Positions 1,697-17,649 of a stretch of 24,000 nt of DNA are shown here, piece by piece. This DNA comes from an uncultured Actinomycetes bacterium (GTDB taxonomy: Bacteria > Actinomycetota > Thermoleophilia > UBA2241), in the NCBI GenBank assembly GCA_963725665.1, contig CAVRZA010000004.1, forward strand, positions 207,543 through 231,542, written 5' to 3'. The position numbers and the translations under genes were made by a program. Below the pieces are notes generated by a model. It was given only the letters and a program-made list of their open reading frames with translations. It was not told the origin of the DNA and ran no database searches. Numbering within the stretch: the stretch's first letter is position 1; the number at the start of each line of letters is the position of its first letter.

Positions 1697-1702
1697 GGGA
1701 GT

Positions 1703-1782: not shown

Positions 1783-1795
1783 GTGAATCCGTGCC

Positions 1796-2250: not shown

Positions 2251-2258
2251 ATAGAATC
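2251..2258 (+). promoter_or_regulatory. candidate -10 element ATAGAATC for rpsR
   Basis: An AT-rich octamer in a GC-rich context, ending 32 nt before ATG 2291. The identical octamer occurs at 13561-13568, ending 33 nt before the corrinoid-protein ATG. Confidence 0.3.
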
Positions 2259-2290
2259 CCGCGGGCGGACCGCGATGAGAAAGGAACTGC

Positions 2291-2590
2291 ATGCCGAGCG
2301 TGAGAAGACGAACCGAGAAGAAGCGGACCGGGCCGGGCGTCGGCTCGCGCCGGCGCTACTGCCACTTCTGCAAAGAGAAGATCGACGTGATCGACTACAA
2401 GGAGTTCGGGGCGCTGCGCAAGTTCATCAGCGACAGGGGCAAGATCAAGTCGCCGCGCACCACCGGGACCTGCCGGCGCCACCAGCGCCAGGTGGCCGTC
2501 GCCGTCAAGCGGGCCCGCGAGATGGCCCTTCTTCCCTACGTCTTCGCGGCCCCGGACGCGGAGAGGGGCGGTCGTCGGCGCCCTCGCTGA
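2291..2590 (+). CDS. rpsR: 30S ribosomal protein bS18 (Cys-containing form, with a basic C-terminal tail)
   Basis: [64 protein letters not shown] is the bS18 core. GAAAGGA SD upstream. It is not in the usual rpsF-ssb-rpsR-rplI context here. Confidence 0.92.
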
Positions 2591-2632
2591 CCGTCGCCTC
2601 TCTGAGCCACTGACGTCGGGCAGGTCGCTGCC

Positions 2633-4066
2633 ATGAAGGTCCGCCTCATCGAGCCCGCGCCGCGGGGCATGAACACGTTCAGCATGATCCTGCTCCCCCG
2701 CCTCGGTCTGCCCATTATCGCCACGACGCTCAGGCAGCAGGGGCACGACGCGAAGATCTACGCCCCTCAGATGGCGCCGGTCGTCTGGTCCGACGTCTAC
2801 GACGCCGACCTGGTCGGGATCACGACGACCACCTCGACGGTGACCGACGCCTACCGGTTCGCCGACGACGTGCGCTCCCGCGGGATCCCGGTCGTCATGG
2901 GCGGCTCGCACGTGACGTTCATGGCCGATGAGGCTCTCGAGCACGCCGACTACGTCGGGCGCGGCGAGGGAGGCGAGCAGCTCATGCCCGAGCTGATCGA
3001 GGCGCTTGGCGGAGACCGTGAGCTGGAGAGCATCAAGGGCCTGTCGTTCCGCCGTGACGGCGAGGCCGTGCACAACGAGCCGCGCGGCTTCTGCACGAAG
3101 CTCGAGGATCTGCCGTTCCCCGACATGACGCTGATCCACGGCCACGAGAACCTGCACACGACGCCGATGATGACGAGCTGGGGATGTCCCTTCAACTGCC
3201 ACTTCTGCTCGGTCACGGCGCTGTTCGGCAGGAAGTACCGCTATCGCAGCGCGGACAGTGTGCTCGCCGAGCTGCGCGAGAAGCGGCCGCGCAAGGTGTT
3301 CTTCTACGACGACAACCTGGCCGCCAACAAGCGCCGGCTCAAGGAGCTTCTGCGCAGGATGATCGCCGAGGACCTGGTCACGCCGTGGTCGGCGCAGGTG
3401 CGCGTCGACGTCGCCAGGGACGAGGAGCTGCTCGAGCTGATGCGCGACTCGGGCTGCGTGATGGTGTACCTCGGTCTGGAGTCGGTGAACCAGGAGACGC
3501 TGGACAGTTACGACAAGCACCAGACCGTCCAGGACATCGTCGACGGCGTGCGGGCGCTGCATCGCTACGGCATCATGAGCCACGGCATGTTCGTCGTGGG
3601 GGCCGACTCCGACACGCGCCAGACCATCCAGGATACCGTCGACTTCGCCAAGAAGAACGGCATCGACACGATCATGTTGAGCGCGCTCACGCCGCTTCCC
3701 GGCACCACGACCTTCCGCGAGCTCGACGAGCAGGGCCGCATCTTCGACAAGCGCTGGGAGTTCTACGACTCCCACCACGTCGTCTTCCATCCCGCCACGA
3801 TGTCGGCCCACGAGCTGCAGCTCGAAGCCCTGAAGGCCTATCGTCGCTTCTACTCCAGGGGGCAGTGGCTCAAGTACCTTCTGACCTTCCGCTTCACGAG
3901 GCTCCTCTTTCAGACCTGGGGGATGTACATCAGGGCGAACTGGCTCCGGAACGAGGACAACAAGGCTTTCATGACGTCGGTGCAGGAGGCCTCCGCCCGG
4001 CGTGCGCTGGCGCCCGCTCGGGCTCCGGACACTCCCGAGCCGGCGGCTCCCGGCTCCCCTTCCTGA
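2633..4066 (+). CDS. B12-binding-domain radical SAM protein (class B rSAM), substrate unknown
   Basis: 477 aa. An N-terminal Rossmann-like cobalamin-binding-type domain (..DLVGITTTTST..GIPVVMGGSHVT..) is followed by CPFNCHFC (CxxxCxxC, nt 3185-3208) and a TIM-barrel-like rSAM core (VFFYDDN, YLGLESV, FVVG). The C-terminal region is amphipathic/hydrophobic. Confidence 0.9.
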   Translation: MKVRLIEPAPRGMNTFSMILLPRLGLPIIATTLRQQGHDAKIYAPQMAPVVWSDVYDADLVGITTTTSTVTDAYRFADDVRSRGIPVVMGGSHVTFMADEALEHADYVGRGEGGEQLMPELIEALGGDRELESIKGLSFRRDGEAVHNEPRGFCTKLEDLPFPDMTLIHGHENLHTTPMMTSWGCPFNCHFCSVTALFGRKYRYRSADSVLAELREKRPRKVFFYDDNLAANKRRLKELLRRMIAEDLVTPWSAQVRVDVARDEELLELMRDSGCVMVYLGLESVNQETLDSYDKHQTVQDIVDGVRALHRYGIMSHGMFVVGADSDTRQTIQDTVDFAKKNGIDTIMLSALTPLPGTTTFRELDEQGRIFDKRWEFYDSHHVVFHPATMSAHELQLEALKAYRRFYSRGQWLKYLLTFRFTRLLFQTWGMYIRANWLRNEDNKAFMTSVQEASARRALAPARAPDTPEPAAPGSPS

Positions 4067-4120
4067 GGTCCACCGGGCCGGCGCGGCGCAGCCTTCGCGA
4101 CGGCTGCTTCCGCTTCTTCC

Positions 4121-4200
4121 TACCGCTCTCGCCGCTGCTCGCCACCGCTCTGCGCTCTCGCCACCGCTCCCGCCGCTGCTCTTCGCCACCGCTCCTGCCC
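4121..4200. repeat. short interspersed direct repeats in the rSAM-nitroreductase spacer
   Basis: gccaccgctc occurs three times (4141-4150, 4160-4169, 4185-4194), twice extended to ctcgccaccgctc. cgccgctgctc occurs twice (4130-4140, 4171-4181). No ORF with a start codon lies in the spacer. Confidence 0.5.
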
Positions 4201-4255
4201 GCCTTGGGGTATCGTTGCCGGCGGATCCCGCGCAGGCTTCGCTTGGAGGTAGACG

Positions 4256-4765
4256 ATGGACGTCCTCGATTGCATCGCGCAGCGCTACAGCGCGCGCGGC
4301 TATCGCTCCGACCCGGTGGACGAAGAGGCACTCGACAAGGTGCTCGAGGCGGCGCGTCTGGCGCCGACCGCCGCCAACCGGCAGCCGTTTCGCGTGCTGG
4401 TCATCCACACGGCAGGCAGGGAAAAGGAGCTCGCGCGCATCTATGGCCGGCCGTGGTTCGTCCAGGCGCCCCTCGTGCTGGCGGTCGTGGCGGTGCCGGG
4501 CGAGGCGTGGCGCCGCATGGACGACAAGCCCTACGACGAGGTCGACGCAACGATCGCCATGGACCACCTGATCCTCGCCGCTGCCAGCCTCGGCCTGGGC
4601 ACGTGCTGGGTCGCCGCCTTCGATCCGGCCGTGGCGCGTGATGTGCTTGGTCTGCCCGACGATGTCGAGCCGCTCGCGTTCACGCCGCTCGGCTACGCGA
4701 CGACGCCGCCAAAGGAGAAGAAGCGGCGGCCGCTCGCGGAGCTCGTCAAGTACGAACGCTGGTGA
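4256..4765 (+). CDS. nitroreductase-family flavoprotein
   Basis: 169 aa: ..RYSARGY..EALDKVLEAARLAPTAANRQPFRVLV..DATIAMDHLILAAASLGLGTCWV.. is typical of the NfsB/FRP fold family. GGAGG SD upstream. The 3' end overlaps the convergent aminotransferase by 20 nt. Confidence 0.88.
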   Translation: MDVLDCIAQRYSARGYRSDPVDEEALDKVLEAARLAPTAANRQPFRVLVIHTAGREKELARIYGRPWFVQAPLVLAVVAVPGEAWRRMDDKPYDEVDATIAMDHLILAAASLGLGTCWVAAFDPAVARDVLGLPDDVEPLAFTPLGYATTPPKEKKRRPLAELVKYERW

Positions 4766-6131
4766 GCGCGTCGAGCAGCTCGTTCCAGGCGTCGAGATAG
4801 GCGTCGACGTCGTCGTCGACCGCCGGGATGGGGACCACGGGTCCGGCGCCTACGATCGCCTCCCACACGCTACGGTTCGCCAGCCAGATGCGGATCAGGC
4901 GCGCGAGCAAGTCGTCATGGCAGGCGCGCGCCTCGGCGGCGTCGCGGACCGGCGTCGGGCGGAACGTGTAGCCGGAGCGCGGCCCGAGATGGTGGATGTG
5001 CCAGGGCAGGCCGGTGCGCTCGACGCCGGCACGCATGCCTGCGGCGAGGCGCGCGCCCAGCCGCTGTGTGTGCGCGTAGGCCTCGGGCGTGAGCACCTCC
5101 AGCATGATCGCTTTCGCCGCCGCCATAGAGAGGGCGTTGCCGAAGAGCGTGCCACCGGTGGCGACCAGGTCGGAGCGCTCGCCGTCGGAGCCCTTCGCCT
5201 GCGTCAGTACCTCCGCGACTTCGTCGGTCATGCCCCAGGCACCGAACGGCACTCCGCCGGCGATCGACTTGCCGCTGGTCACGAGGTCGGGCGCGAGCCC
5301 CCACATCTTTGTCAGCCCACCCGGACCGACGACTTGAGTGTGCGTCTCGTCGAACGCCAGGAGGGTGCCGGTCTCGCGCGTGACCGCCCGCAAGGCGTCG
5401 TTGAAGCCCGGCTCGGGGAGGATCAGGCCGAAGTTGTTCGTCAGCGCTGGCTCGGTGAGCACGAGGGCCACCTCGTGGCCCTCGAGAGCCCGAGCCAGCG
5501 CCTCGGGGTCGTTGAAGGGCACGATGACCGTCTGCTCGATCACGCTCCTGGGCAGGCCCTTCTCCTCGGGAACAAGCTTGCCGTCGGCCTTGAGCTCGAC
5601 GAGTGTCTGGTCGAAGTGCCCGTGGTAGTGGCCGTCGAACATGAGCACCTTCTCGCGCCCGGTCACGACGCGGGCGACGCGGATCGCCTCGGTGTTGGCT
5701 TGCGACGCCGACAGCGTGTACTGCCACTTCGGCAGGCTGTAGCGGCGGCCGAGCTCCTCAGAGACGACGATCGCGTCCTCCGTCGGGAGGAGGAACTGGT
5801 TGCCGCGCGCGATCCTCTCGGAAACAGCCCGCACGAGCGGCTCGGGCGCGTAGCCGCAGAACATCGACATGTCGGCGATGTTGAAGTCGCTGTAGGTATG
5901 TCCGTCGACGTCCGTGAAGCGGGCGCCGCGTCCCTCGACGACCCAGAGCGGTGGGTGGTGGTAGCTGCCGACGAGCCAGGCCATGGGTACGCCGTTCGGC
6001 ATGACGCGGCGCCCGCGCTCCAACAGCTCTACGGAGCGTGGGTGAGCGTCGCGGAAACGCGCGTCTTCCCGATTCTTCAACTCGCGCACAAGGGCGCGCT
6101 CGACGGTGAACACGGGGTCGATGGTCGTCAT
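4746..6131 (-). CDS. class-III (GSA-aminomutase-like) PLP-dependent aminotransferase
   Basis: 461 aa. It contains ..YTLSASQANTEAIRVAR..VLTEPALTNNFG..AFDETHT..TSGKSIAGGVPFGAWG (candidate PLP lysine in SGKS) ..ATGGTLFGN. Overall it resembles glutamate-1-semialdehyde aminomutase / beta-transaminase-type enzymes. Confidence 0.87.
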   Translation of the reverse strand: MTTIDPVFTVERALVRELKNREDARFRDAHPRSVELLERGRRVMPNGVPMAWLVGSYHHPPLWVVEGRGARFTDVDGHTYSDFNIADMSMFCGYAPEPLVRAVSERIARGNQFLLPTEDAIVVSEELGRRYSLPKWQYTLSASQANTEAIRVARVVTGREKVLMFDGHYHGHFDQTLVELKADGKLVPEEKGLPRSVIEQTVIVPFNDPEALARALEGHEVALVLTEPALTNNFGLILPEPGFNDALRAVTRETGTLLAFDETHTQVVGPGGLTKMWGLAPDLVTSGKSIAGGVPFGAWGMTDEVAEVLTQAKGSDGERSDLVATGGTLFGNALSMAAAKAIMLEVLTPEAYAHTQRLGARLAAGMRAGVERTGLPWHIHHLGPRSGYTFRPTPVRDAAEARACHDDLLARLIRIWLANRSVWEAIVGAGPVVPIPAVDDDVDAYLDAWNELLDALTSVRT

Positions 6132-6379
6132 GGAGCGACTCCTCCTCGTCGATCGAAGCCGGCGTCGCCGGCGGCCGTCACGGCAGGTCGCGGCCGCCGG
6201 CCCATAGGAGCATTCGCCGCCGCCACTCCCTCGTCAAGTCAGCCCGACGGTATGCTTGTCGCTGATCAGTGCGCCGGAGTGGGGTGCTGGTCGGGATCAT
6301 GGAGGCTGCCGGCTTGTTCTCGGGGCGGCGTCCCGGAGTGCGTGTGGGTGCGCGCTCCGGTGTCAGGAAGGGGCTGCGT

Positions 6380-7816
6380 GTGAAGGCAGAGTTGCGAGTC
6401 TTGAGCCCGGCCGAGCGCGAGCAAGTGCACGAGCGCACGCTGCACGTCCTCGCCACCAAGGGCATGCGCGTCGACACGGCCCAGGGACGTGTGATCCTCC
6501 GCGAAGCCGGGGGGCAGGTCGACGAAGAGACGCGCGGTGTCCGCTTCCCCGAGGAGCTCGTCGAGCGGTCGATCGACATGGCGACCAAGGAGTTCGCGCT
6601 CGGCGGTCGCCGAGCCGATTGGAGCTTCGCGCTGAACGCCGGCGGCTTCTCGCTCTGTGCAGACGGCGGCAGCAACGTGTTGCTCGACCGGCGCACGGGC
6701 GAGCGCCGCGATTCGACATTCGAGGATTGGCTCGAGATGACGCGCGTCCTCGACGCCATCGAGGACGTCGGGATGTACTGGTGCATGATCGACGGCGGTC
6801 TCGACTGGTCGACGCCCGTCGGCATGGTCGAGTACCTGACGCACCTGTTCGGCACGTTCGGGCGCCACGTGCAGGACTCCTACGACACGCCGCGGGTCAT
6901 GCCCTGGGTCACGCGTGCGCTCGAGGTCGTCTTCGGCAGCCGCGAGGAGGTGCGTCGCCGGCATCCGTTCTCGTTTCTGATCACGCCGGCCTCGCCCCTG
7001 ATCATCGAGGAGCACTACACCGAGTCCTGGCTCGCCTCACGCGGCTACGATATTCCCGTCGCCGTGATGCCGATGCCGCTCATGGGCGCCACCGCGCCCG
7101 GGAGCCGCATCGCCACGCTGGTGCAGGCGAACTGCGAGGTCCTGGGCACGCTCTGCCTGGTGCAGGCGGCCGACCCGGGGGTGCCGTTCATCTACGCGCC
7201 CGTCGTCGCTAGCATGGACCCGCGCAGCGGGCGCTACAGCGGCGGCGCCATGGAGCACTACGTGCTCGGCGCCGCCGCGACCGAGATGGCCCGTCACTAC
7301 GGCTTTCCAGTGCTTGCCAGCGGCTGCGGCACCGACCATTTCGTGCCCTCGCTGCAGGCGGCCTACGAAAAGGCGATGAGCGCTCTGCTCGTTACCCTCT
7401 CGTGGCCCGACTTGCTAGTTGGCCCCGGCATGCTCGGCGGCGCCTCGGTCATGAGCTTCGAGCAGCTCGTCATGGACGTCGAGGTCTTCCGCGCCGCGCG
7501 CGCCGCGCACGAGGGCATCACGGTGAGCGATGAGTCATGGCTGGATGAAGCTGTGGCGCACGTCGACTTCGGCGGCAGCTTCCTGTTCGAGAGATCGACC
7601 AAGGAGAACGTGCGCCGCGGCGAGTGGGCGATGAGCCGCTTCGGCCTGCACGACACGCGCGGCGCCTGGGAGCGCGGCGGCTCGCCGACGACGCTCCAGC
7701 AGGCGCGCGACGAGGTAGAGCGGCTCCTCGCCTCGCACGAGCCGGAGCCGCTCCCCGAGGACGTCGCGCGCGCGCTGCGAGATCTGCGTCGTGAGGCGGC
7801 CGCGGCGTCCTCCTGA
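6380..7816 (+). CDS. MttB-superfamily (trimethylamine-methyltransferase-like) corrinoid methyltransferase, non-pyrrolysine type
   Basis: From GTG 6380 (AGGAAGGGG SD at 6365-6373): VKAELRVLSPAEREQVHERTLHVLATKGMRVD..EELVERSIDMA.. through ..FERSTKENVRRGEW.. is colinear with the MttB family (about 478 aa). The frame is uninterrupted, with no in-frame TAG. The ORF-track start at 6269 is probably too early. Confidence 0.87.
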   Translation: MKAELRVLSPAEREQVHERTLHVLATKGMRVDTAQGRVILREAGGQVDEETRGVRFPEELVERSIDMATKEFALGGRRADWSFALNAGGFSLCADGGSNVLLDRRTGERRDSTFEDWLEMTRVLDAIEDVGMYWCMIDGGLDWSTPVGMVEYLTHLFGTFGRHVQDSYDTPRVMPWVTRALEVVFGSREEVRRRHPFSFLITPASPLIIEEHYTESWLASRGYDIPVAVMPMPLMGATAPGSRIATLVQANCEVLGTLCLVQAADPGVPFIYAPVVASMDPRSGRYSGGAMEHYVLGAAATEMARHYGFPVLASGCGTDHFVPSLQAAYEKAMSALLVTLSWPDLLVGPGMLGGASVMSFEQLVMDVEVFRAARAAHEGITVSDESWLDEAVAHVDFGGSFLFERSTKENVRRGEWAMSRFGLHDTRGAWERGGSPTTLQQARDEVERLLASHEPEPLPEDVARALRDLRREAAAASS

Positions 7817-7923
7817 GAGTCCACCGGCTTGGCGTTGGCGGTGCGGGGGCAGAATCCCCTCTGTCTTCGGGCTTTTCCCGAGGGCGTCGCGGTGCTCAGA
7901 TCAGAAGGACGGGCCGGGTCGCA

Positions 7924-8133
7924 GTGTGGAGGTCCAAGTCATGGTGGCTCTTCGTCGGCTTGCTTGCCGCTGCGTTGACGGCCGTCGTGGTCATCGCGTT
8001 CGTGACCTCGAGCCCCTTGACGAGCTACGGCGGCAGGGCGCCGCGTCCCGCCGGCCTGAGCGCGCCTGCGGCGCCGTATCCATCCCTGCACCCGGGCGCC
8101 GGCTCCGCCTCGGTGTCCGGCGCGTCGCAGTGA
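7924..8133 (+). CDS. small hypothetical membrane-anchored protein
   Basis: 69 aa from GTG. It has one clear TM helix (WWLFVGLLAAALTAVVVIAFV) followed by a Pro/Ala/Ser-rich tail. Third-position GC is as high as in neighbouring real genes. I recognise no homology. Confidence 0.45.
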   Translation: MWRSKSWWLFVGLLAAALTAVVVIAFVTSSPLTSYGGRAPRPAGLSAPAAPYPSLHPGAGSASVSGASQ

Positions 8134-8146
8134 CCGTGGCCATCTG

Positions 8147-8854
8147 ATGGCTACGCTCTACACAGGCACCTCGGGGTTCGCTTACCCGGCGTGGAAGCCG
8201 GGCTTCTACCCGTCCACGGTGCCCGCCGCGAAGTTCCTTGAGTACTACGCTACGCGGCTCAATTGCGTCGAGATCAACTACACCTTCAGGCGCATGCCCG
8301 CCGCATCCACACTGCAGTCGTGGGTCGACCTCACCCCCGAGGGGTTTGCCTTCGCCGTCAAGGCGCACCAGCAGATCACGCACTTTCGCCGCCTCAAAGA
8401 CGCCGGCGAGCCCACGCAGGCATTCCTCGCCGCCCTGGAGCCGCTGCGCGCCGCCGGCAGGCTTGGTCCCGTGCTGTTCCAGCTTCCGCCGCACCTGAAG
8501 GTCGACGTGGAGCGGCTCGATGCCTTTCTCGAGCTGCTGCCGCCCGACTCGAGATACGCCTTCGAGTTCCGCGACGCCTCGTGGTTCGTCGACGACGTGT
8601 ACTCGCTGCTCGGCGAGTACGGCGTGTCGCTGTGCGTGGCCGAGTCCGACAAGCTGGAAGTACCCGATGTCGTCACCGGCGGCTTCGTCTACTACCGCTT
8701 GAGGAAGCCGACCTACGACGAGGCCGACCTCGACGGCGTCGTCGCTCGCTCGCGGCAGGTGCTGGCCGGCGGGCGCGACGTGTACGTGCTGTTCAAGCAC
8801 GAAGACGACCCGACGGGAGCCCTCTACGCGGAGCGCGTGCTCGCGGCGGCGTAG
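8147..8854 (+). CDS. DUF72 family protein (YecE-like)
   Basis: 235 aa: YTGTSGFAYPAWKPGFYP..KFLEYYATRLNCVEINYTFRRMP..GFAFAVKAHQQITH..VLFQLPP..AFEFRDASWF.. is the characteristic DUF72 pattern. Confidence 0.87.
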   Translation: MATLYTGTSGFAYPAWKPGFYPSTVPAAKFLEYYATRLNCVEINYTFRRMPAASTLQSWVDLTPEGFAFAVKAHQQITHFRRLKDAGEPTQAFLAALEPLRAAGRLGPVLFQLPPHLKVDVERLDAFLELLPPDSRYAFEFRDASWFVDDVYSLLGEYGVSLCVAESDKLEVPDVVTGGFVYYRLRKPTYDEADLDGVVARSRQVLAGGRDVYVLFKHEDDPTGALYAERVLAAA

Positions 8855-8982
8855 CCGCGGGTGGCTTGCGCCGTCGGCAGCCGAGCCCGCGTCGGCTTGC
8901 ACTGGCGCGCTTCGGCGGTAGTGTTAGCGGACCGCGAATCGACCTCGTCGTGGCGTCGTGCGGCGAGGGGAAGGAGAGGCCC

Positions 8983-10507
8983 GTGTCCATCGTCCTTGAC
9001 GGCAGCTCGCTGACGATCGAGAAGCTGGCGGCCATCGCCCGTGACGGCGAGGCGGTCGTGCTCGACGCGGCGGCTCTCGAGCGCATCCGTCGCTGCCGCG
9101 AGATGCTCGAAGAGAAGCTCGCGGCAGGCGAGATCATGTACGGCACCAACACCGGCATCGGCGAGTTCTCCGAGGTCGTGCTCAACGACCAGCAGGTGCA
9201 GGAGTTCCAGCGCTCGCTCATCTACAACCACGCCGCCGGCATCGGCGAGCCGGCCCCCGAGGAAGTCGTGCGCGCCGCCATGGCGAGCCGTGTCAACGTG
9301 CTCGCCCGCGGGCACTCCGGCATCCGCGCCGAGATCCCGCTCACCCTGGTGAAGATGCTCAACGGCGGCGTCACGCCGGTGATCTGCCAGAAGGGCTCCG
9401 TAGGCGCCTCCGGCGACCTCGCCCCGATGGCGCAGATGGCGCTGCTCATGATGGGCGAGGGCGAGGCCTTCTACCAGGGCGAGCGCCTGCCCGGGCGAGC
9501 GGCCATGGAGCGGGCCGGCATCCCGGTGCCGGGCCTGCATGCCCGCGACGGCCTGGCGATCATCAACGGCTCCAACGTGCTTACCGCCATGAGCGCCCTG
9601 CTGCTCGTCGACGTCGAGCGCTGGCTGCGCCAGGCGGAGATCGCCTGCGCCATGAGCCTCGAGGCGCTGCTGGCGAACCTCAAGCCCTACGACGTGCGCC
9701 TGCACGAGCTGCGCGGCTTCGCCGGCGCGGTCCGCAGCGCCCGGACCATCATGCGCTGCATCGAGGGCAGCGACCTGGCCACGGGCAAGATCAAGACCAA
9801 GGTCCAGGACGCTTACTCGATGCGCTCATCGCCGCAGGTGATCGGGGCGGCGCACGACGCCGTCGCCTTCGCTCGCTCGCAGGTCGAGATCGAGCTCAAC
9901 GGGGTCGGCGACAACCCCATCTTCCTGCCCGACGAGAGGCTCACGCTCACCGGCGCCAACTTCCAGGGCACGCCCGTCTCACTGCCCATGGAGCTGGTCG
10001 GTCAGGCAATCACGATGGTCTGCGTGTTGAGTGAGCGGCGCCTGAACCGCCTCGAGAACCCCGCCCTCAGCCAGGGGCTGCCCGACTTCTTAACGCCCGA
10101 CCCCGGCTTCTACTCGGGCCTGATGCTCAGCCAGTACACCGCCGACACGCTGATCGTCGAGCAGCGCCTCCTCTCCGCCCCCGCCTCGACGATGTCGATC
10201 CCCGCCGCGGCCGACCAGGAGGACTTCGTCTCCATGGGCATGAACACGGCCCTCAAGAACCGGCAGATCCTCGAGAACGCGTGCGGGGTGCTGGGCATCG
10301 AGTTCATGGCGGCGGCGCAGGCGCTCGACTTTCGCGACTTCACGCCCGGGAAGGGGCGTGCGGGTCGCGCACGACGTCATCCGGCGGCACGTGGCGCACC
10401 TGGATGAGGACCGGCCTCTCTACCCAGACCACAACGCGATGATGGCTCTCGTGCGCTCTGGCGAGATCCTCGCGGCGGTCGAGGAGGCCGTGGGACCGCT
10501 GGCGTGA
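8983..10507 (+). pseudogene. MIO-dependent aromatic-amino-acid/histidine ammonia-lyase or aminomutase family enzyme, with one +1 frame change near the 3' end (pseudogene or sequence error)
   Basis: From GTG 8983 (GGGGAAGGAGAGG SD): ..YGTNTGIGEFSE..LIYNHAAGIG..GSVGASGDLAPMAQ (Ala-Ser-Gly MIO triad at nt 9406-9414) ..NGSN..QDAYSMRSSPQV..GDNP..NFQG..DQEDFVSMG... After ..FTPGKG the conserved tail VRVAHDVIRRHVAHLDEDRPLYPDHNAMMALVRSGEILAAVEEAVGPLA* continues in the next frame. The junction is at about 10354-10358. The 8263-8982 part of the track ORF is a non-coding extension overlapping DUF72. Confidence 0.85.
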
Positions 10508-10521
10508 GGCTGTGGTACGTA

Positions 10522-10550
10522 TTTCACAGTGGTTGAGCAGCGAGTATTCT
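10522..10550 (+). promoter_or_regulatory. candidate promoter of the ABC importer genes (TTTCAC-N17-TATTCT)
   Basis: Both hexamers with exact 17-nt spacing lie in a locally AT-richer intergenic stretch about 70 nt upstream of ATG 10621. Pattern only. Confidence 0.3.
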
Positions 10551-10620
10551 GTCTTGCTTGCAAGGGGTCGCGCGCTTCCGGGAGCCACGACGCGTGACGA
10601 AGACAAAGGGGAGGAAGACT

Positions 10621-11646
10621 ATGCGTGACTTGTCCACAAGGTCGAGGGTCCTGAGCCTCGCCACCATCCTCGGGCTGGTCGGGCTGGCGCTGCTCGTCGC
10701 CGGCTGCGGGAGCAGCACCACGACGAGCAGCGCCAGCCCCAGCGCCAGCCCGAGCGCGACTTCCACCGCGGCCGCGCCGTGGACCGCCGCCGACCTCGCC
10801 GCGATCACGACCGACAGCTCACTCACGGCCTTGCTGCCGGCCGACATCCAGAGCAGCGGCGTGATCAAGTGCCTGAGCGACATCCCGTACCCGCCGTGGG
10901 AGTACTTCGACCCGCCGACCAGCACCAATCCGGCCGGCTTCGACTTCGACATGTCCCAGGCGCTGGGAAAGAAGCTCGGCGTCGAGGTCAAGTTCATCGA
11001 CAGTACGTTCGAGTCCATCCTGCTCAAGATCAAAGGCGGCCAAGGCGACATGGCCTTGTCGGCGATGTACGACAACGAGGAGCGTCAGAAGGCCGGCTAC
11101 AGCTTTGTCGACTACACGTTCGACGGCACAGGCATCCTGGTCGCCAAGGGCAACCCCAACGGGATCACCGGCCTGGACAGCCTCGCGGGTAAGACGGTCG
11201 CCGTCGAGAGTGGCGCGACACAGGTGGTTGTGCTTCAGGAACTGAACAAGGACTTTCAGAGCGCCGGCGAGTCGCAGATGCAGATCCTGAGCCTCCCGGA
11301 CCAGCCCGCGGCGCTGCTCGCGGTCAAGAGCAATCGGGCCGTCGCCGACCTGACCGACTTCTCCACAGCCGTGGACATCGCCACGACGAACGACGGCAAC
11401 ACCTTCGAGGTGGTCCGCGATCCGGCGGCGCCCTACGAGCCGCAGATGAACGGTATGGCCGTGCTCGCCACGAACACGCAGCTCGTGGACGCCCTCCAGA
11501 AGGCGCTGCAGGCCCTGATCGACGAGGGTTCCTACCAGAAGCTGGTCGCGGCGTGGGGCTTCGTCCCTGTCGAGTCGGCGCAGGTGAACCAGGGTCCGGC
11601 CTACGCCGCGAGCCACGCAGGTCTCCCCGTGAGCCCCTCGCCGTAA
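10621..11646 (+). CDS. polar-amino-acid-type ABC transporter substrate-binding lipoprotein (SBP family 3)
   Basis: ATG 10621 follows AAGGGGAGGAAG. There is a signal peptide with lipobox LLVAGC and a Ser/Thr/Ala linker, then ..PYPPWEYF..GFDFDMSQALGKKLGVEVKF..FESILLKIKGGQGDMALSAMY..LAGKTVAVESGAT.., typical of His/Glu/Gln/Arg-type binding proteins. Confidence 0.87.
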   Translation: MRDLSTRSRVLSLATILGLVGLALLVAGCGSSTTTSSASPSASPSATSTAAAPWTAADLAAITTDSSLTALLPADIQSSGVIKCLSDIPYPPWEYFDPPTSTNPAGFDFDMSQALGKKLGVEVKFIDSTFESILLKIKGGQGDMALSAMYDNEERQKAGYSFVDYTFDGTGILVAKGNPNGITGLDSLAGKTVAVESGATQVVVLQELNKDFQSAGESQMQILSLPDQPAALLAVKSNRAVADLTDFSTAVDIATTNDGNTFEVVRDPAAPYEPQMNGMAVLATNTQLVDALQKALQALIDEGSYQKLVAAWGFVPVESAQVNQGPAYAASHAGLPVSPSP

Positions 11647-11650
11647 CACC

Positions 11651-12628
11651 ATGACGGTTGTGGGACCTTCTGGCCAGCTTGAAGGAGGTGCGGCGGCGCC
11701 CGGGGCGGGCTTGCCCGCCCCGGGCGCCGCGCGCCCGGAGGCGATAAAGGCGATCCCGGTCCGTCACTGGGGCCGCTGGATCGGCGCCGCTATCGTCATC
11801 TACCTGGTTGTGGCTCTCGCGTACTCGTTCGTCAAGAACAGCAACGTGGAGTGGCCGGTGGTATGGGAGTACCTGTTCAAGCCGCTGACGCTGCGCGGCC
11901 TGTTGCTCACGATCGAGCTGACGTTCGTCTCGATGGTGATCGGCGCGGCCGGCGGAGTCCTTCTGGCTGTGATGCGGCTCTCCGACAACTACGTGCTCTC
12001 GGGTATCGCCTGGGTCTACATCTGGTTCTTCCGTGGCACCCCGGTCTACGTGCAGATCATCATCTGGGCCAACCTGGGTGTGTTTTATCCGAATGTCATC
12101 GCGGGGCTGCCGTTCACCGGTGTCGTGTTCGGCTCCACCGACAGCGGCACACTCGTGGCGCGCATCATCGTGCCCGCCATCCTCGCCCTCGGTCTGAACG
12201 AGGCGGCCTACGCCGCCGAGCTGGTGCGGGCCGGCATCATCTCCGTCGAGGCGGGTCAGACCGAAGCGGCGCTGTCGCTGGGCATGTCGCCCACGCTCAC
12301 CATGCGCCGGGTCGTGTTGCCGCAGGCGATGCGTGTGATCATCCCCACGTTCGGCAACGAGACGATCAGCATGCTCAAGACAACGTCGCTGATCGCCGCC
12401 ATCGGCGGCCTCGAGATGTTCGGCCGCCTGCAGTCGGTCTACTCACAGACCTACCAGATCATCCCGCTGCTCGTCGTGGCCTGCATCTGGTATCTCTTCC
12501 TCACGTCGGTCCTGACCATCGGCCAGGGCTACCTCGAGGCGTATTTTGGGAAGGGCTTCGGGGAGAAAGAGGCCGAGGCCGCGGAGAAGCGGGCCGTGAA
12601 GCGAGCAGCGAGGGCGCCGCATGTCTGA
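11651..12628 (+). CDS. amino-acid ABC transporter permease (HisMQ family)
   Basis: Multi-pass membrane protein with ..[13 protein letters not shown].. and the EAA loop [32 protein letters not shown]. Its stop overlaps the ATPase start (ATGTCTGA). The N-terminal extent is uncertain. Confidence 0.85.
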
Positions 12629-13439
12629 CGAGAGCGGACATATTGTCTCGCCGACCGTCTCGGGGGTGTCGGCCGGCCAGCCCATGGTCAAGGCCGAGCA
12701 GGTCTGGAAGAGCTTCGGCAAGCTCGACGTGCTCAAAGGCATCGATCTCGAGGTCATGCCCCAGGAGACCTACGTCCTCCTCGGTCCGTCGGGCGGCGGC
12801 AAGTCGACGCTCCTGCGCTGCATCAACCATCTCGAGAAGATCAACGCCGGGCGGCTGTGGGTCGGCGGCGAGCTCATGGGCTATCGCCAGAGGGGCGATG
12901 TCCTGCATGAGATGCGGGCGAAGGACGTCGCGCGTCAGCGCTCTGAGGTGGGCATGGTCTTCCAGCGCTTCAACCTCTTCCCGCACATGACCGCCATCGA
13001 GAACGTGATGGAGTCGCCGATCAAGGTGCAGCACGTGCCTCGCCAGCGAGCCGAGAACGAGGCCGAGGAGCTGCTGACCAGGGTGGGCCTGAAGGAGAAA
13101 CTCGACGTGTACCCGGCTCAGCTCTCGGGTGGCCAGCAGCAGCGCGTCGCCATCGCCCGGGCCCTGGCCATGAAGCCCAAGCTGATGCTCTTCGACGAGC
13201 CCACCTCGGCGCTCGACCCCGAACTGGTGGGCGAGGTGCTCGACGTGATGAAGCAGCTTGCCCGCGACGGCATGACCATGGTCGTCGTGACACACGAGAT
13301 GGGCTTCGCCAAGGAGGTCGCCGACGGCGTGGCGCTGATAGACGGCGGCGTCATTGTCGAGAATGGTCCGCCGCTCGAGGTTCTCGTCAACCCGAAGGAA
13401 GAGCGCACGAAGCTCTTTCTGTCGAAGGTGCTCTCCTAG
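12621..13439 (+). CDS. amino-acid ABC transporter ATP-binding protein
   Basis: Walker [11 protein letters not shown]-loop, signature [15 protein letters not shown], Walker [13 protein letters not shown] and H-loop VVTHEM are present. Confidence 0.92.
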
Positions 13440-13560
13440 GGGCATCGTCAATGACCCGGGCAGAGAGAGGCTCTGCTCGCGGCATCGTCCAGTCGGCCGC
13501 GACGTCGCGAACCAGCAGTCGCGCACCGCGTCCCCGCGGCCGAGTGTCGCGCCAGGGTCC

Positions 13561-13568
13561 ATAGAATC
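13561..13568 (+). promoter_or_regulatory. candidate -10 element ATAGAATC for the corrinoid protein / MtmB-like pair
   Basis: The same octamer, at nearly the same distance from the start codon, as upstream of rpsR (2251-2258). It ends 33 nt before ATG 13602. Confidence 0.28.
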
Positions 13569-13601
13569 GCCGCAACCAAGCCACGGGAGGAAGGTCCGCT
13601 C

Positions 13602-14261
13602 ATGTCGACCACCGAGAAGCTCATCCTGGCCGTGCAGGACGGTGACGGCGAACAAGCCGCCGCCCTTGCCCGTCAGGCCCTCGACGAGGGCGCCGAAGCG
13701 GCAGCCCTCGTCGACGCGCTGACGGGCTGCATACGCGAGATCGGCGATCGCTTCGGCACCGGCGAGATCTTCCTGCCCGAGCTGATGCTGGCTGGGCGCG
13801 CGATGCAGGGCGCGATGAGCGTCCTCGAGCCGGAACTTGTGAGGTCGTCGGCCGCCCTGCGGAAGCGCGGCACCATCGTGATCGGCACCGTGAAGGGCGA
13901 CGTGCACGAGATCGGCAAGGATATCGCCACCACCATGCTCAAGGCGGCGGGGTTCGATGTGCACGACCTCGGTCGGGACGTGAGCTCGTTCGACTTCGTG
14001 CGCCGGGCCGAGGAGGTGCACGCCGACATCATCGGCGCCTCCGCCCTGATGACCACGACGATGCCGGCGCAGAAGGAGATCATCGACGTCCTCGAGGCGA
14101 AGGGCCTGCGCGCGAAGTACCACGTGATCATCGGCGGCGCCCCGGTCACCAGCGAGTGGGTCGCCGAGGCGGGCGCCGACAGCTGGGGCGAGGACGCCGG
14201 TAAGGCCGTGAAGATCCTCGAGCAGGTGATGGCCGAGAAGGCCGGGAAGCTGGAGGGCTGA
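13602..14261 (+). CDS. methyltransferase cognate corrinoid (cobalamin-binding) protein, MtmC/MttC/MtgC-like
   Basis: 219 aa. A helical N-terminal cap domain is followed by a B12-binding Rossmann domain with GDVHEIGK (DxHxxG, nt 13899-13916), SALMTTT and IIGGAP motifs. GGGAGGAAGG SD upstream. Confidence 0.9.
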   Translation: MSTTEKLILAVQDGDGEQAAALARQALDEGAEAAALVDALTGCIREIGDRFGTGEIFLPELMLAGRAMQGAMSVLEPELVRSSAALRKRGTIVIGTVKGDVHEIGKDIATTMLKAAGFDVHDLGRDVSSFDFVRRAEEVHADIIGASALMTTTMPAQKEIIDVLEAKGLRAKYHVIIGGAPVTSEWVAEAGADSWGEDAGKAVKILEQVMAEKAGKLEG

Positions 14262-14265
14262 CGAC

Positions 14266-15651
14266 ATGCCGCACCTGAAGATGTGGGAGATCATGCAGCG
14301 GGCCGCCGAGGGCCCCTTCTGCGAAGACGACACCTTCCTCTACGAGGTCTTCCTGCCGACGATGAAGCAGGTCCTGCGCAAGTACGAGATCAGGTTCGAC
14401 CCGGCCTCACCGGTGCCCGCAGACGACGATCTCGCCGACCGCGTCTGGCGAGGCCGCCGTCGAGCTGTTCCTCGAGGTCGGCGTGCACAACGTCGACACG
14501 CAGCGGCGCATCATGATCAGCGAGGCCGAGCTGAACGAGGCGCTCTACCTCGCGCCCCGAGCAGCACATCGTCGGGGCGGGCCACGAGACGCGCTGGTGG
14601 AGGCCGCGTCGTGTCGAGGACGAGCGCGCGCCGTTCTGCATCTTCAGCCCCGACATCACCTACGACGAGGACATCTTCCTGCAGGCCTCGATGGCCTACG
14701 TGCAGGAGCCTCTGGCCGACGGTGTGTGCGGTCCTATCCTCGAGGAGAGCATCGGCGCGCAACATCGTCTCGGGCACGCCCTCGGAGATGGCCGGCGTGA
14801 TGGAGCACGCCATGTTGCTGCGCAACGCGGCGAAGCTGGTCGGCCGGCCGGGGCTCTTCTTGGTCGCGGTGGGCACCGCCCAGTCCGACACGGGTCAGGT
14901 CGCCGTCAGCAACGACGAGTGGGGTGTGCGCGCGAGCGATGGTCGCCTCATCGGCGTGCTTACCGAGATGAAGACCGACAACGAGCTTCTGAACAAGGTC
15001 GCTCACTGCAAGCAGTACGGCTGCGCCATCGGCTGCCTGACGGGCGCCATCTACGGCGGCTACGCCGGTGGCGCCGAGGGCACCGCCGTGCTCGAGACCG
15101 CCCATCACCTGGTGGGCCTGACCGTCTACCAGCACAACTTCAACAACAGCTTCCCGTTCCACCTGCAGTACACGTCCAACAGCGGGCGGGAGATGCTGTG
15201 GGTGGTCAGCATGGTGCACCAGGCGCTGGCGCGCAACAGCCGCATCCTGTCGACCTCGCAACGGCTTCTTCAACGCCGGACCGGGGACCGACATGCTCCT
15301 CTACGAAGCGGCCGCGCACGCCATCGCCAGCACCGTGTCCGGAGGCGACCTGTGGACGGCGGCGCCGCGGCACAACAAGTACCGCAACTACGCGACGCCG
15401 CTCGAGGCGCGTCTCGCCTGCGAGGCCGCCCACGCTGTGGCGCGGCAGGGGATGACGCGCGCGCAGGCCAACGAGATCGTCGTACAAGCTCCTCGGCGAG
15501 TACGAGGAGACGATCGCCGACGCCCCGGCCGGCAAGCCCTTCCAGGAGTGCTACGACGTCATGAAGGTGCGGCCGAAAGAGCTGGTACCTCGACATGTAC
15601 AAAGCCGCCAAGGAGAAGCTACACGGCCTGGGCGTCGAGTTTCCCTATTGA
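14266..15651 (+). pseudogene. MtmB-superfamily (monomethylamine methyltransferase-like) gene, non-pyrrolysine type, broken by six +1 frame changes
   Basis: Splicing six ORF segments gives a ~460-aa protein colinear with methanogen MtmB as I recall it: MPHLKMWEIMQRAAEGPFCEDD..DRVW | EAAVELFLEVGVHNVDTQRRIMISEAELNEALYLAP | EQHIVGAGHETRWW..GPILEESIGA | NIVSGTPSEMAGVMEHAMLLRNAAKLVGRPGLFLVAVGTAQ..YGGYAGGAEGTAV..SRILSTS | NGFFNAGPGTDMLLYEAAAHAI..ANEIV | YKLLGEYEETIADAPAGKPFQECYDVMKVRPKEL | YLDMYKAAKEKLHGLGVEFPY*. Junctions are at about 14449, 14555-14558, 14760, 15259, 15482 and 15585. Each moves to the next frame (1>2>3>1>2>3>1). Confidence 0.8.
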
Positions 15652-15669
15652 GGCTGGCGCTGCCCGGCG

Positions 15670-16833
15670 TTACGGCCCGTCCACGCGCGGGGAGGCGACC
15701 GCCGTCGTCTGGTAGAGACCGGCGGCGACCTCGCGGCTGCCTCCGTGGAGCTGAGAAAGCGTCAGACGCTGCAGGCTGAGCGAGAGCAGTCCCGCGCCCA
15801 CGGCCACCACAAGCTGCATCGCCTGGAAGCCGAGGGCGAAGGCGATGGCCGGTCCGCTCTCGATGCCGTAGACGGCGAGCGCCGCGACCGCAGCGGCCTG
15901 GAAGGTCCCCACGTTGCCCGGCGTGGCGGGGATGAGCCCGATGATGTTGGTCAGCACGAGCACGAGCGCAGCGCCACGCAATCCGGCGCCCTCGAGGTGG
16001 AAGGCGTGGAGCGCCGCGAACGCCGCCGCCACCTGCACCAGCCAGGCGAGCGCCTGCACGCCGAGCTCCGACAGGGCCGACGAGGGCCTGCCCATGATGC
16101 GCTGGCTCTCGGCAAGCTCCGGCAGGTAATGGCCGACCCTCTGCCGCAGCCGCGACGCGCGGCCCGAAGGGAACCGAGGCAGGCGCAGCTCGAGACGCCG
16201 CGGGTACCCCTTGCGTTCGCTCTCGCGACGCTCACGCTGGCGCTCGAGGATCACGAGGCCGCCCAGGCACGCGCACGAGAACACGGCTCCGAAGACGAGC
16301 ACCTCGACAGCCCACGACGGTGCGGAGAGAGTCGACACGATCGCCAGTGCGAGCGCCACGAAGCTGACGGTGGCGAAGAGCCGCTCGGTGAGGCTCATGC
16401 CGAGCGCCGTCGCGAAGTGCACCGTCGCGCGTCGCCGGCGCAGCAGGATCGACAGCACGTACGGCGTCAGTACGACACCCACGCGCACCGGCAGAACGAT
16501 GTTGGCGAGGAGGCCGATGCTCGTGGCGGAGAAGGCGTCGACGAGGCGCGCGCGCACGTCGCCGAGAGCATCGACGATCACCTTGAGGGCCCAGCTGCGC
16601 AGGACCAGGGAGACGAGGAGCAGGCCCATGGCGGTCAAGGCCCAGCGCCAGTCGGCGTGGACGAACGACTGCTCCATGCGCTCAAGCTGGCCGTGCCCGA
16701 GGAGCAACGCGAGGGCGACGGCTACGGCGAGCCCGCCGAGCCACCAGCGCTTGCCGGGAATCGAAAGGACTCTGCCGACACCGTTTGTGGCAGAAGGCGT
16801 GGATTCTGTTGGTCGGTCTGTCGTGGTGCTCAA
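15670..16833 (-). CDS. lysylphosphatidylglycerol-synthase-TM-region-like (UPF0104 / flippase-like) integral membrane protein
   Basis: 387 aa with about 8 hydrophobic segments. The pattern ..SIGLLANIVLPVRVGVV.. and ..LTNIIGLIPATPGNVGTFQAA.. is characteristic of this family. TTG start with GGGAAAGAG upstream. Convergent with the MtmB-like gene across an 18-nt spacer. Confidence 0.78.
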   Translation of the reverse strand: MSTTTDRPTESTPSATNGVGRVLSIPGKRWWLGGLAVAVALALLLGHGQLERMEQSFVHADWRWALTAMGLLLVSLVLRSWALKVIVDALGDVRARLVDAFSATSIGLLANIVLPVRVGVVLTPYVLSILLRRRRATVHFATALGMSLTERLFATVSFVALALAIVSTLSAPSWAVEVLVFGAVFSCACLGGLVILERQRERRESERKGYPRRLELRLPRFPSGRASRLRQRVGHYLPELAESQRIMGRPSSALSELGVQALAWLVQVAAAFAALHAFHLEGAGLRGAALVLVLTNIIGLIPATPGNVGTFQAAAVAALAVYGIESGPAIAFALGFQAMQLVVAVGAGLLSLSLQRLTLSQLHGGSREVAAGLYQTTAVASPRVDGP

Positions 16834-16925
16834 CGATCTCTTTCCCTGGGCGGCCGCCCCCGGCAGAAGGGCCAGGGCTGCGATCTCTTGACTTGAGTAT
16901 CGGGACGAGGCCCTGGTCCGAGAAG

Positions 16926-16943
16926 GATAGGACTGTTCCTATC
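16926..16943. promoter_or_regulatory. candidate operator: perfect palindrome GATAGGA-CTGT-TCCTATC
   Basis: 7-bp perfect inverted arms with a 4-nt spacer, AT-richer than the surroundings. It sits in the 229-nt divergent spacer between the membrane-protein gene (start 16833, minus) and the VOC gene (start 17063, plus). Confidence 0.35.
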
Positions 16944-17062
16944 TGTCCCAGAACAAGGTAGCTTGGTCATCCAGCCGGGCCGGGCGCAAGGCGATTAGTC
17001 ACCCCTGTGGCCGGGCATGAGATGCCTCACACGGCGGAGAGCTCGGACGTCGGGAGTGGAGC

Positions 17063-17560
17063 ATGGCGCCGCTCGACCAGGATACCATCATCGGACACGT
17101 CCACCTCAAGGTGGCGGACCTCGACCGTGCCGTGGCCTTCTATCGCGACGTGCTCGGCTTCGACCTGACGACCCGCCTCGGCGCCCAGGCCGCCTTCCTC
17201 TCGGCCGGCGGCTACCACCACCACATCGGTCTCAATACGTGGGAGTCGGCGGGCGGGTCACCTCCTCCTCCGGGGACGACCGGGCTCTACCACTTCGCCG
17301 TCCGCTTCCCCACGAGACGTGCGCTTGCCGAGGCGCTGCTGCGGCTGATCGAGGTGCGCTACCCGATCGAGGGGGCGTCGGACCACGGTGTGAGCGAGGC
17401 GATCTACCTGCGTGACCCCGACGGCAACGGTATCGAGCTCTACTGGGATCGGCCGCGCGAGGAGTGGCCGCACGACCGCGACGGCGACCTTGAGATGTTC
17501 ACCGCCGCCCTCGACCTCGAAGAGCTCCTGGCCGAGGTGCGGCGGTCGAACGGGGATTGA
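17063..17560 (+). CDS. VOC (glyoxalase / extradiol-dioxygenase fold) family protein
   Basis: 165 aa: IGHVHLKVADLDRAVAFYRDVLGFDL..GYHHHIGLNTWE..LYHFAVRFP..DHGVSEAIYLRDPDGNGIELYWDRP matches the CatE/YfiE-like VOC subgroup. GGGAGTGGAG SD upstream. Confidence 0.88.
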   Translation: MAPLDQDTIIGHVHLKVADLDRAVAFYRDVLGFDLTTRLGAQAAFLSAGGYHHHIGLNTWESAGGSPPPPGTTGLYHFAVRFPTRRALAEALLRLIEVRYPIEGASDHGVSEAIYLRDPDGNGIELYWDRPREEWPHDRDGDLEMFTAALDLEELLAEVRRSNGD

Positions 17561-17649
17561 GGTCCGCGGGTCGGTCGCGCGGCCGATCGACCGAGGGTCT
17601 CGCAGGGGTTTTCAAGCGTCGGGCGATCGTGTTCGATACAGTGAGTGTG

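Follow-up and report, generated by a model that had tools for sequence, protein, structure and literature searches.

The window analyzed here, a 24,000-nucleotide stretch from an uncultured soil Actinomycetes bacterium of the Thermoleophilia (contig CAVRZA010000004.1 of assembly GCA_963725665.1, positions 207,543 to 231,542), holds a block of about 11 kb in which the genes for a corrinoid protein (CoP) and a methyltransferase of the MtmB family lie downstream of those for an MttB-like methyltransferase, an ammonia-lyase, and an amino acid importer. The G+C content of the window is about 68%, and hence many of its open reading frames (ORFs) are spurious; the genes were defined by combining frame plots of G+C content at third codon positions (GC3) with a frame hidden Markov model (HMM), Pfam, and NCBIfam. 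Comparison loci from other genomes are labelled with L and a number (L001 is GCA_040776965.1, and L002 is ENA contig_32579), and neighborhood counts for the CoP-MtmB pair refer to 68 bacterial loci. Coordinates, strand, and identity of the features of the block are as follows.

4746 to 6131, minus strand: class III pyridoxal phosphate (PLP) aminotransferase, glutamate-1-semialdehyde (GSA) aminomutase-like, divergent from the MttB-like gene (Pfam Aminotran_3, 1.5e-36)
6380 to 7816, plus strand: MttB-superfamily methyltransferase lacking pyrrolysine (non-Pyl), 478 aa, GTG start at 6380 behind AGGAAGGGG (PF06253, 1.7e-60)
7924 to 8133, plus strand: small ORF with a single transmembrane (TM) segment, 69 aa, translation beginning VWRSKSWWLFVGLLAAALTAVVVIAF, between the MttB-like and DUF72 genes
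8147 to 8854, plus strand: DUF72 (YecE-like) protein (PF01904, 2.5e-61)
8983 to 10507, plus strand: ammonia-lyase of the histidine ammonia-lyase (HAL) family with a 4-methylideneimidazole-5-one (MIO; Ala-Ser-Gly) motif (PF00221, 4.4e-161, 537 bits)
10621 to 11646, plus strand: lipoprotein solute-binding protein (SBP) of the polar-amino-acid type, SBP_bac_3 (PF00497, 3.7e-25), lipobox LVAGC
11651 to 12628, plus strand: ABC permease of the HEQRo three-TM type (BPD_transp_1, PF00528; TIGR01726, 55.7 against a cutoff of 42.2)
12621 to 13439, plus strand: ABC ATPase, GlnQ/EhuA/TcyN-like (ABC_tran, PF00005, 1.2e-34)
13430 to 15661: 2.2-kb segment comprising its own upstream region, the CoP gene, and the MtmB-like gene, present here and represented by 47 bp in L002
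13602 to 14261, plus strand: cognate CoP (B12-binding_2 and B12-binding, Pfam 7e-18 and 5.1e-27)
14266 to 15651, plus strand: non-Pyl MtmB-family substrate:corrinoid methyltransferase (MT1), corrected length 459 aa (PF05369, 2.5e-32)

Every gene family that an earlier note, made from the letters of the sequence, had named at 4746 to 15651 is recovered by Pfam and NCBIfam, and the MttB-like frame (6380 to 7816) is, as that note had it, uninterrupted. It missed that the MtmB-like and lyase genes are not single open frames, these genes carrying six and one 1-nucleotide (nt) insertions, respectively. The note had also treated the 11-kb block as one unit. The comparison with related genomes instead divides it into a lineage-conserved module A (4746 to 13439) and a separable module B (13430 to 15661), a division that follows from the absence of the CoP-MtmB pair in L002 together with the presence of pair orthologs elsewhere without module A. 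L002, the closest relative, shows 88 to 96% nucleotide identity to positions 933 to 13429 and 15662 to 20004 of the window (blastn); the high-scoring alignments stop at 13429 and restart at 15662, and a 47-bp GC-rich hairpin replaces window positions 13430 to 15661. The order of the aminotransferase and of the MttB-TM-DUF72-HAL-ABC series is kept in L002, with the CoP-MtmB pair missing at the site. Likewise, L088, with an MttB-like protein 80% identical to that of the window, keeps the nitroreductase-aminotransferase and MttB-small ORF-DUF72-lyase arrangements, so that L002 and L088 both retain module A only, whereas Thermoleophilia orthologs of the pair at 82 to 87% identity (L001/L012, L007 to L009, L011, L013, L014, and L063) occur in other contexts as module B only. 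Co-localization of the block as a whole is accordingly not conserved in related genomes, an outcome that the earlier note had itself named as counting against its proposal. Upstream, the pair has 162 nt of its own, which include a −10-like TAGAAT about 40 nt before the start of the CoP gene (13540 to 13601); a −10-like element 40 to 60 nt upstream of the CoP start is common to the relatives L007, L008, L009, and L063 (CCCATATGATG), and this suggests that the pair has its own promoter. No repeats or signs of mobile elements were seen on reading the sequences at the module B junctions, no repeat search having been run.

The main new result of the analysis is the linkage of the CoP-MtmB pair to histidine utilization (hut) genes in other genomes. 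Hut genes lie beside the pair in 9 of the 68 bacterial loci (10 counting a truncated contig), which come from three phyla and fall into five or more sub-clades of a neighbor-joining tree; against a generous expectation of 2.5%, the binomial probability of this linkage is about 5e-5, a figure that ignores phylogeny. In the most extensive form, an Actinomycetes locus (L044) has the order CoP-MtmB-HutH-HutI-FTCD_N-FTCD_C-HutU. An Anaerolineae locus (L017) has regulator-CoP-MtmB-HutU-HutH, and one from Bacillota (L055), a 4.6-kb contig ending inside hutI, has MtmB-HutH-HutI. The series FTCD-HutU-HutI-HutH is divergent from the pair in both L042 and L045, the former also having DUF72 and a homocysteine methyltransferase, and FTCD genes lie near the pair in L059. 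The locus L010, whose MtmB-like protein is 83% identical to that of the window, has the order HutU-CoP-MtmB. Two further loci combine the pair with MttB paralogs as well, namely, L018 (MttB-CoP-MtmB-HutH-CoP-MtmB-MttB) and L022 (regulator-CoP-MtmB-HutH-MttB-permease-ATPase-SBP-permease-MttB). The MtmB-adjacent HutH proteins of L044 (694 bits) and L018 (655 bits) clearly exceed the NCBIfam hutH cutoff of 539.

Beyond the hut genes proper, relatives of the pair adjoin MttB-family genes, HutH, polar-amino-acid ABC or major facilitator superfamily (MFS) transporters, and DUF72 in other phyla. DUF72 is near the pair in 10 of the loci, including the hut-linked L042 and L044, and the gene set of the window recurs at the family level in L006, L015, L018, and L022. 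The neighborhood that the earlier note had singled out thus has analogs elsewhere, but their MttB, SBP, and HAL proteins are not orthologous to those of the window, and the overall interpretation holds for a recurrent combination of families and not for the 11-kb block as one conserved unit. Its guess of a histidine-derived substrate gains comparative support because relatives of the pair are built into hut operons elsewhere, with the qualification that the window's own partners are not orthologous to those found there. No link between hercynine or methylhistidine and MttB, MtmB, or corrinoid proteins was found in the literature searched.

With respect to the pair itself, the CoP displays the DxHxxG motif as GDVHEIG and scores 204.2 against TIGR02370, just under the cutoff of 215.3, and below the cutoffs of the MtgC and MtbC models. 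In 63 of the 68 loci, a CoP gene directly precedes the MtmB-like gene. The MtmB-like protein belongs to the MtmB superfamily (PF05369, 112.8 bits on the mosaic ORF against a cutoff of 25) and, after frame correction, shows 58 to 87% identity to intact 459-aa members of the family. Residues 7 to 458 of the corrected protein align with residues 10 to 458 of Methanosarcina barkeri MtmB1 (PDB 1l2q/1nth; 6.8e-61), and the alignment with 1l2q is free of gaps at five of the six frameshift junctions. The pyrrolysine of the latter enzyme, Pyl202 (UAG), is replaced by Val in the window protein (within GRPGLFLVAVGT, as against GRPGMGVXGPET). Unlike in M. barkeri MtmB1, the corresponding codon specifies a Val inside the family-invariant FLVAVGTA, and there is no in-frame amber codon; the corrected frame, which has no internal stop, therefore does not belong with the Pyl-dependent MtmB proteins. 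Thermoleophilia, Chloroflexota (Anaerolineae among them), Bacillota, and further groups have many intact 459-aa non-Pyl homologs.

The statement of the earlier note that MtmB is known as the pyrrolysine enzyme for monomethylamine is outdated. MtqB of Methanococcoides methylutens Q3c (ACT9XH_RS04775), a non-Pyl MtmB homolog encoded adjacent to the corrinoid protein MtqC, is a tetramethylammonium/choline:corrinoid methyltransferase (PMC13044021). Non-Pyl MtmB homologs are numerous, and in one published tree a function is assigned to the MtqB clade alone, a clade marked by conserved Met/Cys and aromatic pocket residues (PMC13044021). MtqB/MtqC and the window pair are alike in having PF05369, in lacking pyrrolysine, and in the immediate adjacency of the CoP gene, and both are presumed to work by one MT1 mechanism, an attack by Co(I) on an N-methyl group. 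They differ in that MtqB is archaeal and coenzyme M linked, whereas the clade of the window is bacterial and elsewhere has hut neighbors, RACo, and a pterin- or homocysteine-type second methyltransferase (MT2). The type 1 mlp clusters (PMC10418091), which are MtaA-like methyl-sulfur/selenide systems, were considered and set aside as not relevant.

The earlier note had remarked on the absence of an MT2 and an activase from the window, and tblastn confirms this: references for Pterin MT2, RACo, S-methyl_trans, DUF1638, CCG, and flavodoxin proteins gave no match in it. In other genomes, genes of these types are linked to the pair (L005, L043, L048, L056, L026, L027, L030, L054, L061, L065, and the Anaerolineales loci). 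A complete system is found in L005, where GntR, CoP, MtmB, a Pterin_bind MT2, and a RACo activase follow one another. Of the 68 loci, 4 have a pterin MT2 near the pair, 7 have RACo, and 11 have S-methyl_trans (a homocysteine S-methyltransferase domain); these 11 belong mostly to the Anaerolineales sub-clade, with DUF72 and an MFS transporter. In Anaerolineales, a PF02574 protein is close to CoP-MtmB in L033, L036, L037, L038, L040, L042, L059, L060, and L081; in L040 it is directly upstream and divergent, DUF72 is near in most of these loci, and the MFS gene is downstream in several. This linkage suggests that a methyl group travels from an N-methyl donor to methionine by a split MetH-like route. 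In four Thermoleophilia loci (L011, L013, L014, and L063), CCG-domain and Flavodoxin_5 proteins are encoded directly upstream on the same strand and DUF1638 downstream, a set spanning about 7300 to 13300 in L063, which we regard as a candidate alternative reductive-activation set that would replace RACo/RamA.

Two kinds of accessory gene were seen around individual copies of the pair. In the Chloroflexota loci L006 (2319 to 3605) and L022 (494 to 1837), a regulator combining cyclic nucleotide (cNMP)-binding, Crp-type helix-turn-helix (HTH), and B12-binding domains precedes the MttB/CoP/MtmB clusters and may be a corrinoid-sensing transcription factor. Upstream of the hut-linked pair of L017 (3660 to 6959) are M28 and M20 peptidases and a creatininase fragment, and an M20 peptidase also follows the ABC genes in L006 (12172 to 13359); these hint at a substrate released from a dipeptide, for example, anserine or carnosine derivatives.

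The proteins of module A fall within the families listed above. The MttB-like protein is a member of the MttB superfamily (PF06253, 204.9 bits against a cutoff of 25, covering profile positions 26 to 497 of 500), but scores only 315.6 against the trimethylamine MttB equivalog TIGR02369, with a cutoff of 525. It matches the Pyl-containing MttB 7xcl at 176 bits, with Gly at the position of Pyl (GCGTD against GSOSD), and MtgB (2qne/9yce) more weakly, at 119 bits, MtgB being the one substrate clade of the non-Pyl enzymes covered by this comparison. Like the window protein, the MtgB of the MtgB/MtgC/MtgA system of Desulfitobacterium hafniense and MtpB, MtcB, and MtyB have PF06253 without Pyl, and the glycine betaine system has a comparable logic of an MT1, a CoP, a pterin MT2, and a RamA-type activase. 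The window differs from the MtgB-type systems in having no MT2 or activase, and the relatives of its MttB-like protein at 60 to 64% identity are orphans without a corrinoid protein, lying beside LysE and DUF1015. The SBP is under every NCBIfam equivalog cutoff, and the ABC ATPase reaches about 310 bits against the GlnQ and EhuA models, below their cutoffs. The aminotransferase, whose position is kept in L002 and L088, passes the NCBIfam model NF005453 "transaminase" (439.9; cutoff, 425). The small single-TM ORF is conserved in both of these loci, where a 68-aa gene is called, and has no Pfam match.

The lyase is an MIO lyase/aminomutase by its GSVGASGDLAP (Ala-Ser-Gly) motif and PF00221, and in its corrected form it passes the looser HAL subfamily model NF006871 (539.3; cutoff, 524) while falling below the hutH equivalog TIGR01225 (510.2; cutoff, 539.15). 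Among PDB structures it matches HAL at about 300 to 305 bits, as against 280 bits for the tyrosine aminomutase SgTAM. The residues that we take to be catalytic or imidazole binding in Pseudomonas putida HAL (Y53, H83, N195, Q277/Y280/R283, F329, and E414) are matched, and atypical motifs are present (NTGIGEFSE, YNH, QEDFVSMG, and ANFQG). Relative to the Hut pathway (HutH, HutU, HutI, and FTCD/HutG), therefore, the window lyase is alike in its MIO motif and differs in its score below the hutH cutoff, its atypical motifs, and its being nearly as close to tyrosine aminomutase; the likeness of module B to that pathway lies in the embedding of its orthologs in hut operons elsewhere. The lyase subfamily defined by NTGIGEFSE, YNH, and QEDFVSMG is very abundant and strongly conserved and scores below the hutH equivalog cutoff; it is present in at least 592 metagenome stretches, and among the best 80 (L089 to L168; 74 to 85% identity) no conserved neighbors were found, at most 7 of the 80 sharing any neighbor family. 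In L133, a member lies directly after a canonical HutH, and on this ground the subfamily may not be a plain histidase.

As deposited, the MtmB-like gene does not form a single uninterrupted reading frame. Its longest ORF (14266 to 15564) is a frame mosaic with a 432-aa product, and GC3 moves along the gene through the frames A, B, C, A, B, C, and A. Aligned at the DNA level with its L001 ortholog (84% identity), the gene shows six single-base insertions, all +1, and zero deletions, near 14449, 14555, 14756, 15256, 15483, and 15576, in the contexts TGG-C-GAG, CCC-C-GAG, GCG-C-AAC, TCG-C-AAC, GTC-G/T-AC, and AAA-GAG-C. The corrected gene has 459 codons without an internal stop, retains every family-invariant residue, and gives dN/dS values of 0.13 to 0.21 with five orthologs. 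The lyase gene has one +1 insertion at about 10356, its true extent being 8983 to 10507 (507 aa corrected), as against the ORF end at 10407. At 1073, the gene for an S-adenosylmethionine (SAM)-dependent methyltransferase (about 896 to 1696, plus strand) has an extra T relative to L002 that splits it between two frames, a +1 insertion like those of the MtmB-like and lyase genes. The 432-aa frameshifted product is found in the public record of the 653,833-bp source contig (NCBI and ENA), and hence the shifts belong to the deposited assembly and were not introduced into the window. The closest relatives are metagenome-assembled genomes (MAGs) of the Microflora Danica (MFD) type with Flye-style contig names. 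In L002, eight one-base insertions cluster within the permease and ATPase genes (L002 15594 to 16964, corresponding to window 11902 to 13265), and in L071, also an MFD MAG, the MtmB-like gene is split into three frame pieces (L071 1563 to 3043); these clusters of same-direction 1-nt insertions look like a dataset-wide error signature. Given the common direction of the insertions, the intact corrected frame, the dN/dS values, and the same signature in L002 and L071, the frameshifts are most probably long-read (nanopore) assembly errors, and the organism itself probably has intact genes. Exact look-ups of 133-aa partial products at the first two shifts (window and corrected versions, three junction variants) in short-read-derived data gave no match and are uninformative; the run ERR12037368 holds an identical CoP gene in a 1.4-kb Logan contig. 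Programmed +1 frameshifting or recoding was rejected, as the six sites have no common slippery motif, the orthologs are uninterrupted, and the same errors occur elsewhere in sister assemblies. More generally, such clusters in long-read MAGs can make intact genes resemble pseudogenes, which calls for caution.

Building on the observed family identities, modularity, and frameshift anatomy and on the association of the family with hut, MttB, DUF72, and transporter genes, we propose that module B is the core of a corrinoid-dependent demethylase with which module A might cooperate in the window, a reading to which we assign a probability of roughly 0.45. The non-Pyl MtmB-family MT1 would methylate the Co(I) of its cognate CoP with a methylated nitrogen compound as the donor. 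An unlinked MT2, which in relatives is of the pterin-binding methyl-tetrahydrofolate (THF) or homocysteine S-methyltransferase type, would then pass the methyl group on, and an unlinked activase, represented in Thermoleophilia relatives by RACo or by the CCG-protein/flavodoxin/DUF1638 set, would keep the cobalt reduced. The demethylated histidine product would enter histidine catabolism, and module A could supply uptake, a first betaine-type demethylation via the same CoP, and deamination. The linked CoP and the pterin or homocysteine MT2s, RACo, or CCG/flavodoxin/DUF1638 proteins around pair orthologs point to a standard MT1-CoP-MT2 relay, probably with THF or homocysteine as the acceptor. 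Because hut operons of three phyla incorporate orthologous pairs, the substrate is most likely an N-methylated histidine, either of the hercynine/N-alpha-methyl-histidine series or a ring-N-methylhistidine. For L018 and L022, in which MttB paralogs accompany CoP-MtmB, along with a second CoP-MtmB set, stepwise demethylation of histidine betaine is an attractive possibility, and a single MT1 inside a hut operon would fit better with a mono-methylated histidine. The fuller version of this proposal, namely, that the clade is a previously unrecognized methyl-histidine demethylase that feeds the Hut pathway and delivers its methyl group to THF or homocysteine, and that the window encodes a complete histidine betaine route with the MttB-like protein, importer, and lyase, is speculative and on balance doubtful.

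Several observations weigh against cooperation of the modules in the window. The pair is missing from the otherwise conserved L002, and its Thermoleophilia orthologs (L001, L007 to L014/L063) occur without any module A gene. The window's MttB-like protein is only 25 to 28% identical to the two MttB clades partnered with MtmB elsewhere, comparison of its SBP with those of L006, L015, and L022 gives only 36 to 40 bits, and its lyase is 38 to 47% identical to the MtmB-linked HutH proteins, so that none of these is orthologous to the recurrent partners; the lyase also misses the hutH cutoff, and neither Pfam nor tblastn found a match to hutU, hutI, or FTCD anywhere in the window, which thus does not hold a hut operon. 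To these may be added the missing MT2 and activase, the possibility that the frameshifts are real, and the substrates of MtqB. The main rival is accordingly pure juxtaposition, which we hold to be a serious, if still not the favored, explanation: module B, whether inserted or surviving between the ABC ATPase gene and a convergent lysylphosphatidylglycerol (LPG) synthase gene, would have no functional tie to module A, and the proteins of the latter would each serve a separate pathway, the MttB-like protein as an orphan, the lyase as a variant of histidase, and the ABC system as a general importer of polar amino acids. The presence or absence of the 2.2-kb segment relative to L002, the upstream region of the pair with its −10-like element, the other contexts of its Thermoleophilia orthologs, the orphan relatives of the MttB-like protein, the lack of conserved neighbors for the lyase subfamily, and the nonorthology of MttB, SBP, and HAL to the recurrent partners are all in keeping with it. 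Against it, MttB, HAL, DUF72, and polar-amino-acid ABC genes recur around the MtmB clade in unrelated phyla far above expectation, module B is the sole source in the window of the corrinoid protein that an MttB-family MT1 requires, and the close ortholog in L010 is hut linked.

Two further alternatives concern module B itself. One is that it is a quaternary-amine system like MtqBC, with choline, tetramethylammonium, or another small methylamine as the substrate and no relation to amino acids, its proximity to hut genes arising only from co-location of THF-linked one-carbon (C1) functions. MtqB is the sole characterized non-Pyl MtmB homolog, uses tetramethylammonium (QMA) and choline, and has an adjacent corrinoid protein (PMC13044021); the hut variants beside the module are often of the THF-dependent FTCD type, and many modules are flanked by MFS rather than amino acid transporters. 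The hut linkage could, therefore, reflect shared THF/C1 metabolism in FTCD-type hut systems instead of a substrate-product relation, although we consider this the weaker account of it. HutU/HutH in L017 and HutH/HutI in L055 adjoin the module with no FTCD in the recovered sequence (that of L055 being a 4.6-kb contig), several loci have polar-amino-acid ABC transporters and an M20 peptidase, and a genome scan recovered the window clade without Methanococcoides MtqB-type genes, weak evidence for a separate clade in that the scan was pattern dependent. An MtqBC-like role is held to be improbable. The other alternative, only slightly less improbable, is that the MtmB-like gene, and possibly the lyase gene too, is a real pseudogene and module B the decaying remnant of a lost capacity. 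The deposited sequence does carry the six frameshifts, with the mosaic product in the public record, all six affect the MT1 gene, the CoP gene being free of them, and module B is dispensable in the sister genome L002. However, the lesions are six independent +1 insertions of 1 nt with no deletion, stop codon, or larger lesion among them; the family-invariant residues are all retained at a dN/dS of 0.13 to 0.21; similar clusters affect different genes of the long-read assemblies L002 and L071; and isolated +1 insertions are also found at 1073 and 10356 in otherwise conserved genes.

The embedding of one bacterial MtmB clade in hut operons across phyla, accompanied by its own CoP, MttB paralogs, transporters, and THF- or homocysteine-type MT2s, yields a concrete and testable substrate hypothesis. 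If the demethylase proposal is true, it would add an anaerobic route for the degradation of hercynine or methylhistidines, compounds tied to ergothioneine and to animal and fungal biomass, and would extend corrinoid-dependent demethylation beyond small betaines to a proteinogenic amino acid skeleton. It would also point to alternative activation by the CCG/flavodoxin/DUF1638 set and to homocysteine methyl-acceptor partners.

No Rfam family, including a cobalamin riboswitch, was found at the gathering threshold, and a promoter/terminator scan was near background and uninformative, except for a promoter-like site at 10523 to 10550 before the SBP gene. Outside the block, the left flank encodes the SAM methyltransferase, an rpS18 paralog, a B12-radical-SAM protein, and a nitroreductase, and the right flank encodes the convergent LPG-synthase-like protein, a glyoxalase, FtsEX, M23 and S41 peptidases, and probably RNase R. 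At 17557 to 18830, the coding signal is weak, with several indels relative to L002, in which a 63-aa ferredoxin and a 99-aa ORF are called, and this region may hold further frame-damaged small genes. Between 2291 and 4765, the rpS18 paralog, the B12-binding radical SAM enzyme, and the small nitroreductase precede module A in an arrangement kept in L002 and partly in L088; the radical SAM enzyme is BchE/HpnJ/PhpK-like, although below all cutoffs, and constitutes another B12-dependent enzyme beside the corrinoid locus.

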